NCBI RefSeq assembly: GCF_988242995.1
Contig: NZ_OZ547044.1
DNA length: 64,000 nucleotides
From: a plasmid
Reading direction: 5' to 3' (one strand)
Positions 42,901 to 48,900 of the stretch are shown here, piece after piece; position 1 is the stretch's first letter; each line of letters starts with the position of its first letter. A program made the position numbers.

Positions 42901-45900
42901 AATCACTTCCCTGGGGGCGCGTGTCACCAGTGAGCTGACGGCCTTCAGGAACGTTAACCGGGTATTCCTGGTCGGGGGAGGGGCTTCCCTCATAGAAGAA
43001 GCTATCCGTCAGGCCTGGCCTCTGGCTCATGACCGTATCGAGGTTATAGGCGATCCGCAGATGGCGCTGGCCAGGGAGATTGCCCTTTACAATAAAGAGG
43101 ACTAAACGTGCCGGACGGCCAGTATTCTTTCTATCTGCACAGCGACGATCGCACCGACATCGCGGCGATGGCAACCATCAGCACCATCTCACAGCCCCTG
43201 CGCGGTGAGTTCATCCGTACCGCCGCCACCGCCGGGGCGGTGGTATACCAGGTGGATGCCCGTTTACCGGCGCTGATCCCGGTGTTCTTTGCCGGGCAGC
43301 TAAGCGCTGTCCGCCTTTGCGCCGTGATGGCCCTGGTCTCCGGAACCTGGTCCTCACTCACCGGCCTTCCGGATGAGCCCGAAAATGGTGGGGCTGCTCT
43401 GCCCGTGTCACCGGAGACGGAATACCAGCGCCGGCGTTACACCCTGACGCTTCAGAATGGCCGGAGTGGGGAACGGGTGGAAAGTGTGCTGACGGAAGCG
43501 TCATCCCGTCTGCGTGGGGATCTGCTGAGAAACCTGATTATCACCGGTCTTGCCCTCCACACGACGGCGCCGGAACTGCCGCGCCTGCTGGCCAGTATGC
43601 CGGTACCGCCCACCTCGGTCAGTGAGCTGCAGTCACTGGTTCAGCAGATGGCCGGCACCGCTGACGTGAACAGGGCTGCAGCTGCAGTACCGGATACGCC
43701 GGCAGCATCTGCCGCGCCGGTGTCCGGGTCGGATACCCGGGAAATAAAGAAAAATATGCGGCGTGCATTCGGCGACTAACAGTACGAATCACATCCACTA
43801 CTACACCGATTTCAAATGACAGGCATCCCAGGGAGGTTCTCATGTCACCAGGATTCAGAAATGTTCTCCGTCTCGCCCGCATTCCCGTCGACAGCAGTGA
43901 ACCGGTGCGAAGAAAATTTGGCAGCCGGCTGATTGGCATTGTGACGGTATGTCTGCTTCCGCTTCTGGTTTTCGACGTTCCGCAGTGGGTTTTCATTTTG
44001 TCGCAGGTCATCTGGGGGGCGGGCGTCTATATTGGCCTGTCACTGGCCGGGGATAAATCCCTGAACCGCTGATATAAACTTTCCGGTTGTTCAAAAAAAG
44101 AACAGGCGTGGTGGCGTCTGTTCTCCCGCGCTTCTCCGTCGTTTGCCTTCAGGTTATCCACAATCTTAAGCCCCGGATTTGTGGACAGGTATGCCGGTAA
44201 TTCCCCGTTCGCCTGGAGTTAACGCAAGCCTGCCGCCCGCTGCCAGTGTCTCGCGTCCGGTCTGGTACGGGACGGGCGGTTTTTCCGCTCCGGCCCGGCG
44301 TCGTTGAGAGTGTGCGCCAGTCCCTCGCCCTTTTAAGGAACGCCCTTCAAGCCGCTTTCGCGGCATATCCTTGCCGTCCAAAAGACGGACGGCTGCGGTA
44401 TTCCACGGTCGGCCTGACCCGTGACCGGACGCGATGAACAGGCAGCGTGCGGCAGGGAACGGTATCGCGGTGATGCCTCCTGCCCCCTCAGACTACAGGA
44501 GTGCTGCCATGTCCAGATTCATTCTCGGGAACTGTATTGATGTGATGCGCGGATTCCCCGACCGTGCCGTGGACCTTATTGTGACCGATCCGCCTTACCT
44601 CGTCGGTTTTAAGGACCGTCAGGGCAGACAGATTGCCGGGGATGTGACGGACGAATGGCTGCAACCGGCCACGCTGGAGATGTACCGCGTCCTTAAAAAA
44701 GACGCACTGATGGTGAGCTTCTACAGCTGGAACCGTGTGGACCGCTTTATGGCCGCGTGGAAGGCGGCAGGATTCTATGCCGTGGGCCAGCTTGTGTTCA
44801 CCAAAAACTATGCCTCCAACCGTCGTAACGCCAGGGCCCGACGCGGATTTGTGGACTACTGCCATGAAGGGGCTTATGTCCTTGCCAAAGGCCGCCCCGT
44901 GCCGCCCCTTAAACCGCTGCCGGATGTGCTGCCCTTCCCGTATACCGGTAATACCCTGCATCCGACGCAGAAACCGGTGGAGGCGCTACAGCCGCTGATT
45001 GAGTCATTCAGCGCCCCGGGCGCGATTGTTCTCGACCCGTTTGCCGGAAGCGGTTCGACCTGCGTCGCTGCATACCGTGCCGGACGCCGCTATATCGGCA
45101 TCGAAATGCTGGCGCAGTACCACCGGGCCGGAACCGAACGACTGGCCGCCATGCACCGGGCCGTAAATACCCCGGCGGCGAACGATGAATGGCTCCCGGA
45201 GGCCGCGTAATGAATTACGACGGACACGAAGCCCTGCGCCGCGATATGGCCGGGCTGGCGAACAATCTTTGCGACCTGAAAACCACCCTGAAAGTGCTGG
45301 AAGACACGTACCACTACCGGTACGACGGACTGGCGGAACGGCTTGCCGGTATCAGTCTGCGACGTCTCAGCGTCCTGATGGATGAGGCGTTCAATATTGC
45401 ACTGATGCTCGATGAAAGCTTTCTGGATTGAGGAGAGAACATGTACGGAACCCGTGAAGATCTTTGCAGGATGCTGAATGAGCAATATCCCGCAGAAACC
45501 CCGCTGAACCTGATTATCTGGACCCCGGCGGATATTGAAGCACTGGCTGACGGGATGGAATATTCCTTTTCAGAACATGACGTAAGGGCAGTACTGGAAC
45601 GCATGGACACTATACCGGAAGAACAACGGCTTGAGTCGGGCGTGTCAGCCGGCCTGGTGATGGCACTGATAGACCAGGTGAAAGAGAACGGGCAGAGGGT
45701 GACTGTGCCGGTTGACCTGCTTGAAACCCTGCTGATTACCGCCGAACAGGCATTGTGGGACAGGGAATGGACCGCACGGGATCGCAATCTCCCGGTGCCG
45801 GAAAGCGTAATGCGCCGCCTGGCGGATACAGCAAAAGTGCGGGCATTACTGAAAAGCTGACAGCAGATCGCCCCGCCACGCGGCGGGGTGATATAACCCG

Positions 45901-48900
45901 GACAGAGACGATAATGATGAAAAAAGAAACCCTTAACACGCTTATTCTGCGTCACGGCGACCGGATGCTGCGCCAGGCTGGCTGGCCCGACACTGTTGAT
46001 ATGGCGCCCGTCGCCCCCGAAACCGTACCCGGCTGGCTTGCCGCCTGCGGCTCTCTCAGTGGCGTGGAAATCCTCACGCTTACGGAACAGCTTTGTCAGC
46101 CGCTGACGTATGGCCGGGCAGCGTTGTTGCTCGCCAGCGCCCGGCGGCTGGCGGGAACCCCGGCTCGTCTGCATCTCTTTCCGGTGCAGGCATATCCGCA
46201 TCCGGAGCGGCTGGCTGACTGTCAGGTTATCCGCCTGCCTTACGCTCAGGAGTGGCTGACAGCGGCGGAATGTGACGATCTGCTGGCCTTCCTGAAAGCC
46301 TCCCTCACGCAGATATCGGAAATCGTCCACCGGGATACGAAGCGCATCGCCGCCGCGCTTACGCCGTCCGTCAATCCCCGTCTGATGGACAGGCGGATCG
46401 GTGACTGGCGCTTGCTGGCCGTGGAGTATGATCATGATAACTGCCTGGACGAAGACGAAACCGACAGGCTGGATCAGGTCCTCGATGCCATTCTGATTCG
46501 CGATGCGCGATTCTGCCCGGTCCTGCTCACCCTGGTTAACGAGCGGGAGGAAACTATCAGGAGCGCAGGGGTTATCGCTGATCAGCTGCGTTTTACGGAC
46601 ACTCCGGTCCGGCGCTGGTTTGATCGCCGGGTTTTAAGGGAAATGGTGAGGGAGGCCCGCGCCAGCAGAACTCAGGAGTGACAGCCCGGCGCATCAGGGG
46701 AGGGGACCCTCCCTTGTCAGCCTGCCGGCACAGGAGGTGTGGTGCGATAAGGATGTCGCCGTGCCGGCTCCGCGTCCACCCGGCCCGGTTTCCGGGCCTT
46801 TTGGGTGAACACAACCCTCTGTTATCGCCGTGCCGTGTGCTGGCTGTGCCGTGCCTTCACTTTAGCCCGGCAGCCGCAGAGGCTGGAGTTCGCTGGCGCC
46901 GCCATCCCCGGATAAGGCAGTCGCCGGCTTGCCGTTGCCGCCGGCTCCGCTTCACCCGGCCCCATCCCTCCGGTCCGAGGCCTTATTACTGCGTCTGTCG
47001 CGTTGCGACATCTGCTTCCGCTTTTCTCCCGGTGGTCGAAAAACGGGGGAGAGAAACCCTGTATTCAACCTCCTGCATCGCGACGGGTTGTGCCGTGCCT
47101 TCACTTTAGCCCGGCCGCTGCAGATGCAAGGGTGCGCTGACGCCGCCATCCTCGCCCGGTCGCAGGTTTTTTATGATGCTCGCCGTTCTTCCCGTCGTTT
47201 TCTCGCTCAGGTTTCGCTCGAAAACCGTCCAGACCAGCTTCGCGCTATATCTGCGCTGCGGCCTCCGGTGTCGCCCCTGCATCTTTCGCTTTTCGCCGGG
47301 CTGTCGTGTCGGCACGGCACAACCCGGTGCCGCAGTCTATGTGATTACGGAGGTTTATCCATGCAGTATGTGAATACATGCCCGGTCCTGAATGTTGAAG
47401 AGTGTGACCGCCTGTCTTTTATGCCGTACCTGTTCGGCACGGATTTCATGCTCGCGGAATTACAGGTGTACGCTCTGGCCAAAAAATGGATGCCCGGCTA
47501 TGAGGGCGGCTTCTGGCATTTTATTCGCCTGCCGGAGGGGGGCGGCTACATGATGCCGGATTGTGGCCGGGTACATCTGGTCAGTAGCGAAAACTGGTTT
47601 GATCGAACTGTCAGCGCCGACGCGGCGGGCATTATTCTGACCAGCCTGGCGATTAATCGCCGTCTGGCGGCCCATCATGACAGCAGTAACCCGGCGCTGA
47701 CTCGCCTTTATATGCTGCGTGATGCCCAGCTCTGGAATCACATCACCTTTCACCCCGAATGCAGTGCTATTTACGCCGCGCTGGACTGATTAACGACCGG
47801 GGCGGTTACACCGCCCCGCAGGGAGACAAAAATGACTTCATCAGTAACCGTTCCGGCCGTCTACGTGGGCACATATCACCAGTACAACGGCGGCAGTATT
47901 TTTGGCAAATGGTTTGATTTAACCGACTTCGACGACGAAGACGAATTTTATGACGCCTGCCGGGCGTTGCATGCCGCCGAGGATGACCCCGAGTTTATGT
48001 TTCAGGACTGGGAAGGGATCCCGTCTCAGTTTGCCTCTGAATCCTCTGTTAAGTGGGCGTTTATCGAGGCATTCCGGCAGGCGCAGGACGAAGGACGCGC
48101 TGCCGCGTTTGTGGCCTGGGCGGACTATACCGGCGAGTGCGACTATGACGCCTTTGATGAGGCGTATTGTGGCGGGGCTGAAAGCGAGGAGGATTTTGCT
48201 TATGGCTTTGTGGAGGATCACGGCCTGTTAAACGAGGTGCCTGAATCCCTGCGCGTCTATTTCGATTATGAGGCTTACGCGCGGGATCTGTTCAGCAGCG
48301 GCTATGTCTTCCATGAAGGCTATGTATTCAGCAACTGATTACTATCCGGCGGGGAAGCCCGCCGGTTAAGGAGAAAGCACATGAAACTTGCACCACAAAG
48401 CCGCGATATCCTGCGACAGTACAAAGCCCTGATTAATGCCCGCCGCCGCGATGCCGGTCAGCGGGAACTGACCACTGCGCAGGTGATGGATGAAATCTGC
48501 GAATACATGACCTGTCAGTGCGCCGTCTATATTGGCGGCCATTTCATTCTTCAGGGGGGAAAGGCACGATAAATCACAGGGCAGGGGGGAACCTCTGCCG
48601 CTTCCGGCCGCGCGAAAACCCGGGCAGGCTGCGCCTGCCGGAGAGAGACGTCGCCGCGCCTCCGGCGCCGCGCACTCTCCTCTCCGTTGTCAGTCGCTGT
48701 TGCCCCGGAATTCGCGTATTATCAGGGATATCTTCCTGTAAAGCAGACCGGTGAAGCATATGTCAAAGTGGAATATCGCCTCTTTTTCAAAGGAGGAGCA
48801 GGATAAAGTTGCCGTCGATAAGGTGGCTGCTGCTGTTGCCTGGCAGGAGCGCATGAACAAGCCCGTCGTGCCGGAACTTGTTGAACGGGAACAGCCTGAA

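Follow-up and report, generated by a model that had tools for sequence, protein, structure and literature searches.

Three open reading frames (ORFs) that follow an orphan DNA methyltransferase (MTase) gene in the window (the whole 64,000-nucleotide stretch analyzed, from a plasmid, contig NZ_OZ547044.1 of assembly GCF_988242995.1) are real, conserved distal genes of a known, early-expressed MTase operon carried by IncF and IncI1 conjugative plasmids. ORF1, ORF2 and ORF3 encode proteins of 73, 139 and 255 residues, and the MTase is a 233-residue, beta-class N6-adenine enzyme of the M.EcoGIX/YfeA/YfbB family. On balance, we lean toward the reading that the three ORFs are early-expressed distal genes of an operon served by a single-stranded DNA (ssDNA) promoter, and that the products of ORF2 and ORF3 bind host proteins during plasmid establishment, independently of methylation. 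The finding is correct but already known, and is not novel because the three families have been catalogued as prevalent, uncharacterized families of leading regions (PMC11541004).

The preliminary description of this DNA placed the start of the 73-residue ORF on the MTase stop codon, and this was confirmed, with TAA at 45208-45210 and ATG at 45210-45212, giving a one-nucleotide TAATG overlap. The 139- and 255-residue ORFs lie next, as was also described, and the three ORFs are co-directional and 5' of klcA and ardA, all on the + strand. ORF1 and ORF2 are separated by 9 nucleotides, with GGAGAG immediately past the ORF1 stop, and ORF2 and ORF3 by 53 nucleotides. The 73-, 139- and 255-residue forms are exactly those of the RefSeq annotation on identical plasmids; a mechanical ORF list gives longer forms of ORF1 (80 residues, from 45189) and ORF3 (308 residues, from GTG at 45755). 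The MTase most likely starts at the ATG at 44509, judging from the conserved AGGAG before it and the N-terminus MSRF... common to the enzymes of F and pESBL, and for the same reasons a start at 44434 was disfavored.

Co-transcription with the MTase, which had been proposed earlier, is well supported by the architecture of the locus, that is, the gene overlap, a GGAGG sequence, the short gaps, the lack of a better-than-chance terminator before 46782 and an upstream hairpin. GGAGG lies 8-9 nucleotides before the ORF1 ATG, inside the last MTase codons (...P-E-A-A), in all 11 loci compared, and in the same 11 the MTase stop and ORF1 start overlap (TAATG or TGATG) or abut (TAA ATG). The spacing between ORF1 and ORF2 is 9-13 nucleotides with GGAGA when ORF2 is of the "A" subtype, and 47-55 nucleotides for the "B" subtype. 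A consensus scan found none that exceeded chance 5' of 46782, where a GC-rich hairpin followed by a T-run, about 100 nucleotides past the ORF3 stop, likely marks the operon's 3' end; this evidence is weak because such sites are not more numerous in the region than shuffling predicts. A promoter-like site before ORF3 (45888-45915) was considered as an internal promoter and rejected, as it falls within chance expectation.

Directly upstream of the MTase is a structured non-coding element that is probably, judging from sequence and predicted folding, a homologue of the "class 3" ssDNA promoter (ssp3). Positions 44244-44462 share 85% identity with the DNA just 5' of the MTase in pESBL and F, compared with ∼70% for coding DNA, and this conservation holds although the genes further upstream differ among plasmids. 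Folding is confined to the - strand, the one that is transferred and serves as template, with an energy of -75.4 kcal/mol (z=-6.3 vs. shuffled sequences), and in a consensus structure drawn from nine diverged loci, 14 of 69 pairs have compensatory double substitutions. A number of the conserved pairs are G-T in the - strand sequence, which the + strand or the mRNA would turn into A-C mismatches. The element is a large, conserved hairpin of the transferred strand, directly 5' of the MTase.

The timing of expression is known from homologous plasmids. Wen et al. (2025; PMC12672017) report up to ∼500-fold induction of pESBL leading-region genes, grouped in six operons, 15 min after mating, with transcription in transconjugants shown for pESBL and F by ED-TA RNA-seq and 5' rapid amplification of cDNA ends (5' RACE). 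In new transconjugants, a class 3 ssDNA promoter belonging to the M.EcoGIX operon drives its induction, and 5' RACE located the transcription start. Induction was likewise reported for the KlcA and M.EcoGIX operon homologues of F, and klcA and ardA use "class 2" ssDNA promoters.

We placed the locus in its plasmid context by searching PLSDB with positions 44400-46800, and the top hit reached 99% identity or higher in 1,546 records, mostly conjugative Klebsiella plasmids of IncFII/IncFIB(K) type. The window corresponds to the leading region of an IncFII(K)-type plasmid from Klebsiella, with an annotated order of umuDC, parM-stbB, MTase, ORF1-3, klcA, ardA, small genes, ssb, DUF905, ParB-like, psiB, psiA and hok. 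All of these except umuDC are on the + strand and point toward the transfer origin (oriT), the complement being the transferred strand, so that the MTase operon sits in the leading region with the transferred strand as its template. The same module, consisting of the MTase, the 73-residue ORF, DUF1380, an ORF of ∼255 residues, a 0.4-0.7 kb gap and klcA, was found in several other plasmids (Table 1), and the gene order was kept in all 13 further loci that had enough sequence on both flanks. The ORF3 slot is decayed in the Salmonella bongori plasmid RM1.

Selection on the individual genes was evaluated from pairwise ratios of nonsynonymous to synonymous substitution (dN/dS) in codon alignments of diverged orthologues. 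ORF1-3 are all under purifying selection, and hence are not chance ORFs. The constraint on ORF2 and ORF3 is 2-3 times weaker than that on the MTase and klcA.

Table 1. Features of the MTase operon and its surroundings, with dN/dS ranges, and the equivalent module in other plasmids (coordinates of the last four rows are those of the plasmid named).
Feature	Coordinates	Strand	Assignment or description	dN/dS
MTase	44509..45210	+	orphan beta-class N6-adenine DNA methyltransferase	0.07-0.19
ORF1 (73 aa)	45210..45431	+	Pfam PF27407 / phrog_4830	0.04-0.43
ORF2 (139 aa)	45441..45860	+	DUF1380 (PF07128)	0.30-0.36
ORF3 (255 aa, from ATGATG at 45914)	45914..46681	+	phrog_8919	0.24-0.40
klcA	47361-47789	+	PF03230, E=8.8e-28	0.09-0.15
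ardA	47832-48338	+	PF07275, E=4.5e-34	
Structured non-coding element, directly upstream of MTase	44230..44462	-	probable class 3 ssDNA promoter (ssp3) homologue	
Terminator-like GC hairpin and T-run	46782..46798	+	7 GC pairs, loop 3, then TTTTGGGTGA	
Hairpin upstream of klcA, outside the operon	47084..47326	-	class 2 ssDNA-promoter homologue	
76-aa ORF between stbB and hairpin	43842-44072	+	RefSeq hypothetical	
373-aa antisense ORF	45314-46435	-	overlaps ORF1-3	
Module in plasmid F	54166-56341			
Module in IncI1 pESBL-EA11 (NC_018659)	54782-56957			
Module in pO157-type plasmid				
Module in plasmid of Salmonella Typhimurium ATCC 14028 (pSLT)				

To compare the histories of the genes, alleles were typed at 16 loci, in which the MTase falls into two clades, Klebsiella-type and F-type. 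The type of ORF1 tracked the MTase clade in 15 of the 16, pSLT having an intermediate ORF1. ORF2 and ORF3 types, in contrast, were shuffled relative to the MTase clade: two loci (L010, L011) combine an F-type MTase and ORF1 with Klebsiella-type ORF2, ORF3 and klcA, a third (L022) has this pattern with a decayed ORF3, and in pSLT (L023) an F-type MTase occurs beside a DUF1380 of the B subtype, with ORF3 and klcA of Klebsiella type. In six loci (L007, L008, L009, L012, L013 and L023), a DUF1380 subtype of just 30-35% identity fills the slot of ORF2. DUF1380 is a multi-paralogue family of leading regions, with at least four subtypes, some pairs of which are 17-30% identical; Citrobacter werkmanii (L010, 6054-9556) carries four paralogues, two in the MTase operon and two past klcA, and a paralogue also follows klcA in F (L003, 8228-8647) and pESBL (L006, 7844-8263), in the slot that ardA occupies in this plasmid. 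The best-supported reading of these patterns is that ORF1 is tied to the MTase, and that ORF2 and ORF3 behave as independent, exchangeable cassettes, as seen for anti-defense genes.

The predicted proteins were examined individually. ORF1 is acidic (isoelectric point, pI, 4.8) with a conserved leucine-rich spacing, and matched phrog_4830 over 73 of 73 positions (E=1.1e-16). It was blank in the Pfam profile search, as the set used was without the PF27407 model, and cluster representatives 99% identical to ORF1 bear precomputed PF27407 assignments. By position, ORF1 is probably YubE/YfeB of F. ORF2 (pI 4.56, net charge -10) is predicted to be all-helical and belongs to the family of F YubF/YffA, with a DUF1380 match of 298 bits against a Pfam gathering cut-off of 26, covering residues 1-137 of the 137-position model. 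ORF3 (pI 5.8, net charge -4) is mildly acidic, belongs to the family of F YubG/YffB, and is predicted to be a soluble, two-lobed alpha/beta protein with no recognizable fold relative. It shares 40% identity over 254 residues with its F and pESBL orthologues (E about 1e-40) and matched phrog_8919 (E=1.4e-43), and its orthologues occupy the same slot in all loci. In a 2026 preprint, ssp2 of F has yffB as its immediate upstream neighbor and yfgB (klcA) on its downstream side, an arrangement that identifies yffB as the ORF3 orthologue. The ORF3 family is narrow, with 199 representatives in an exhaustive hidden Markov model (HMM) search, the named matches being almost all from Enterobacterales, and tblastn found no match in phage records; its place in PHROGs therefore probably stems from sequences of plasmid or prophage-like origin.

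Functional clues in these sequences were few. Pfam, NCBIfam and PADLOC returned nothing for ORF1 and ORF3 and DUF1380 alone for ORF2, with no nucleotide-binding, nuclease, helix-turn-helix (HTH) or ParB signatures in any of the three; PHROGs assigned them to three families, all of unknown function. No transmembrane segment or signal peptide was detected in ORF1-3, and sequence searches of the PDB with all three gave nothing below E=0.9; no structural relatives were found. Homology between ORF2 and ORF3 was also rejected. Two apparent fusion entries are rare, P0192 (ORF1 with ORF2, in 3 contigs) and P0095 (ORF2 with ORF3, in one contig), and in P0121 and P0147 (one contig each) ORF2 is read through, out of frame, into the region of ORF3. 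Because all four look like frameshift or read-through artefacts, they were rejected as Rosetta-stone evidence, and such entries in public collections could mislead domain-fusion inference.

The identity of the MTase is clear from its matches to PF01555 (E=9.5e-35) and NCBIfam PRK13699 (E=6.4e-135), its DPPY and FAGSGST motifs, and its full-length identity of 70% to M.EcoGIX of pESBL and 71% to the F enzyme, and it belongs among the M.EcoGIX-type beta-class MTases. None of the neighboring genes was found to be nuclease-like. M.EcoGIX is an orphan beta-class MTase that produces N6-methyladenine (m6A) on ssDNA in a loose SAY context (PMC7736820). This activity is known for M.EcoGIX and M.BceJIII (PMC7736820), to the first of which the present enzyme compares at 70% identity only. 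M.EcoGIX is silent in established plasmids, and its deletion lowered transfer into EcoGIII or EcoRI recipients by up to 1000-fold (PMC7736820; PMC4288162). The earlier suggestion that the MTase protects against host restriction holds for the 70%-identical homologue M.EcoGIX (PMC7736820; PMC4288162), and would apply to the enzyme of this plasmid by extension. By analogy, the MTase does not appear to need ORF1-3, because M.EcoGIX and M.BceJIII methylate in vivo, with an SAY m6A pattern, when their ORFs are cloned by themselves (PMC7736820), and the Burkholderia MTase is followed by unrelated ORFs. In the published pESBL deltaGIX knockout, a gentamicin cassette replaces the first gene of the four-gene, translationally coupled operon, and the section of PMC4288162 examined contains no complementation of it; for these reasons, the deltaGIX phenotype may owe something to polarity on the three genes that follow.

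Putting these observations together, the following sequence of events would account for the locus. On entry of the plasmid as a single strand, the transferred strand would fold into the hairpin at ∼44230-44462, host RNA polymerase would take the folded hairpin as a promoter, and a single mRNA would span MTase, ORF1, ORF2 and ORF3, with the burst of expression stopping once the complementary strand is made. ORF1 would be translated by ribosomes terminating at the MTase stop, and would therefore be made together with the MTase; with alleles that travel with the MTase clade, it would be the likeliest of the three to act with the enzyme. ORF2 and ORF3, being small, acidic and soluble and showing no catalytic or DNA-binding signature, would bind host proteins during establishment and neutralize or redirect them, an anti-defense role in the broad sense, apart from methylation. 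The trio as a whole would most likely be non-enzymatic binding proteins, made early, that aid establishment. The ssDNA-promoter activity, the zygotic induction and the anti-restriction effect of the MTase are carried over here from homologues described in the literature, and we infer the binding or inhibitory mode of action of ORF1-3, together with their targets.

The proposal that the trio are anti-defense or establishment proteins, made in the preliminary description, is favored by position, timing, leading-region enrichment and protein properties, and finds no counterpart in homology or fold matches to known anti-defense proteins. Several points weigh against the account we favor. No sequence or profile likeness to known anti-defense proteins was found for ORF1-3, nor any fold likeness for the modelled proteins ORF2 and ORF3, and searches on the gene names and DUF1380 gave no functional data for them among the papers searchable. 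Small size, acidity and fast evolution make a weak signature. The linkage between ORF1 and the MTase could be a mere effect of zero intergenic distance, and induction of the three pESBL and F orthologues would follow from their membership in the operon.

Because the MTase is so tightly coupled to ORF1, we considered whether ORF1-3, and ORF1 above all, might be accessory subunits that target the enzyme to the entering strand or the replisome, supply a factor that is missing once it has been purified, or restrict how long it is active. The invariant Shine-Dalgarno sequence and stop/start coupling at 11 of 11 loci, and the agreement of ORF1 type with MTase clade at 15 of 16, are what such subunits would predict, and Fomenkov et al. 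lost MTase activity on purification and suspected an intermediary protein between the MTase and PolI (PMC7736820). That factor, however, is a host protein, present in cells that lack the trio, and M.EcoGIX and M.BceJIII give SAY m6A in vivo by themselves (PMC7736820). The Burkholderia homologue is not followed by homologues of ORF1-3, ORF2 and ORF3 alleles have been swapped across MTase clades, and DUF1380 paralogues also lie past klcA, away from any MTase, all of which make accessory subunits unlikely. A related idea is that the trio provides damage control for promiscuous SAY methylation, either by inhibiting Type IV (Mrr-like) restriction or by relieving a penalty on replication or copy number. 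Wild-type M.EcoGIX and M.BceJIII sensitize DNA to EcoKMrr, and depress ColE1 and p15A copy number and M13 growth (PMC7736820), and promiscuity of the MTase is therefore costly, which an inhibitor expressed alongside it would make good; the tight, conserved gene linkage also fits. This idea is purely inferential, however, no likeness to known Type IV inhibitors was seen, the Burkholderia MTase manages without these partners, and ORF2 and ORF3 shuffle apart from the MTase, so that we regard damage control as quite improbable. A broader version of these ideas makes the whole trio, or ORF1 at the least because of its coupling, work with the single-strand MTase instead of being a bystander, by offsetting m6A liabilities such as Mrr-type restriction or replication slow-down or by delivering the enzyme to the incoming strand; such a partnership is unlikely.

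Two further explanations were weighed. ORF1-3 might be establishment factors unrelated to defense, acting on host physiology, on conversion of ssDNA to double-stranded DNA or on first replication, like the ParB-like YfjB/HerB. There is a precedent in another conserved leading-region "unknown," which proved to reprogram host transcription rather than to counter defense (PMC13370423), and the period of zygotic expression would be the same (PMC12672017). Set against this, the three proteins are net acidic and show no DNA-binding features, with no ParB, HTH or nucleotide-binding motifs, and the cassette swapping and paralogue expansion of DUF1380 look more like an arms race than housekeeping; we consider such a role very unlikely. 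Finally, an MTase followed by an unannotated protein of ∼250 residues has the classic look of a Type II restriction-modification system, and endonucleases often lack sequence similarity, which would make ORF3 a cognate restriction endonuclease or toxin, and the locus a restriction-modification or addiction module. No nuclease fold or motif was detected in ORF3, nor was a dependence on the MTase for viability seen, and this explanation is barely credible.

The locus was also compared with described systems. Among the closest is the M.EcoGIX operon itself (pESBL-EA11; YfbB in R64; YfeA then yffB in F, with the older UniProt names YubD-YubG), which has the same gene order and orientation to oriT, the same structured non-coding gap before klcA, the upstream hairpin (85%) and the same MTase-ORF1 coupling signals. 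Identity to pESBL is uneven (MTase 70%, ORF1 45%, DUF1380 57%, ORF3 40%, KlcA 73%), and the Klebsiella MTase has a 6-residue insertion. The surroundings also differ, in that parM/stbB lie upstream in this plasmid and DUF1281 genes in F and pESBL, and klcA is followed by ardA here and by a second DUF1380 paralogue in F and pESBL. Among the leading-region-enriched families ranked by Samuel et al. (2024; PMC11541004 Suppl. Table 1), the MTase is number 8, at a median position of 21 from oriT, the ORF1-type family is number 11 (position 20), DUF1380 (YcgB/YubF) is number 7 (position 19), the YchA/YfdA/YubG family is number 10 (position 18) and KlcA is number 9 (position 16); all five show significant leading-region enrichment, and the first four lie on the strand that can be transcribed from ssDNA (PMC11541004). 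By name and position, families 11, 7 and 10 are ORF1, ORF2 and ORF3, and no function is given for them there. The "ArdA" tag carried by 10 of 3,556 members of family 10 was rejected for ORF3 (hhalign probability 0.1).

ArdA and KlcA/ArdB resemble ORF1-3 in small size, acidity, leading-region location and expression from ssDNA promoters as the plasmid enters, but share no sequence, profile or fold similarity with them, and with net charges of -10 and -4, ORF2 and ORF3 are far less acidic than ArdA (-29). None of ORF1-3 could be placed in the ArdA or KlcA(ArdB) families (PF07275, PF03230) by Pfam, profile or fold. In the M.BceJIII locus of Burkholderia cenocepacia pBCJ2315, a conjugative plasmid of the MOBF/MPF_F type, a homologous ssDNA-specific MTase (59-61% identity) precedes small hypothetical ORFs in the same direction, along with a ParB-like gene. 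These downstream ORFs (168, 55 and 62 residues) have no detectable homology to ORF1-3 (HMM E≥0.24), the best blastp match between the two sets covering 27 residues (E=2e-4).

The DNA between ORF3 and klcA, outside the MTase operon, holds a second hairpin, a homologue of the class 2 ssDNA promoters that precede klcA and ardA in pESBL and F. Positions 47084-47356 match the pESBL sequences upstream of klcA and of ardA (68-69% identity, E 1e-14 to 4e-16, blastn), and contain a 32-nucleotide inverted repeat (47084-47115/47295-47326, 84% complementary); the - strand folds at -73.5 kcal/mol (z=-4.1). A direct repeat (46842-46910/47086-47154, 86% identical) is a partial copy of one hairpin arm, 244 nucleotides further upstream, and the klcA-proximal region therefore carries a duplicated element fragment. 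The terminator-like hairpin, this arm copy and the klcA hairpin together mark the start of the next operon.

Other features of the region were also noted. Between stbB and the upstream hairpin is a 76-residue ORF without a Pfam match, in which two hydrophobic stretches seen by eye suggest a small membrane protein. The antisense ORF that overlaps ORF1-3 is unannotated in every record seen, and is probably a GC-rich shadow ORF, because the signal of purifying selection sits in the + strand frames. Group II intron reverse transcriptase genes (ltrA) lie just 5' of the MTase operon in the pO157-type plasmid (L004, 1513-3237) and in an E. albertii plasmid (L024, 2354-4054), which suggests that the stretch between the partition genes and the MTase operon is an insertion hotspot.

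The three families are among the commonest genes of unknown function on IncF and IncI1 resistance and virulence plasmids, with carriers that include the Klebsiella pKPN3/pKpQIL-like backbone, F, pSLT and pO157-type plasmids, and by analogy with these relatives they would be expressed in the first minutes after transfer, beside proven anti-restriction functions. What the present analysis adds is a sharper framing, with ORF1 linked to the MTase, ORF2 and ORF3 as independent cassettes, and a possible polarity of the M.EcoGIX knockout. If the trio, or ORF1 at least, does act as a partner of the MTase, part of the up-to-1000-fold anti-restriction phenotype of M.EcoGIX may reflect loss, by polarity, of the three genes downstream. 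The targets of ORF1-3, once known, would fill a gap in our understanding of how resistance plasmids become established, and could reveal new host barriers to conjugation.

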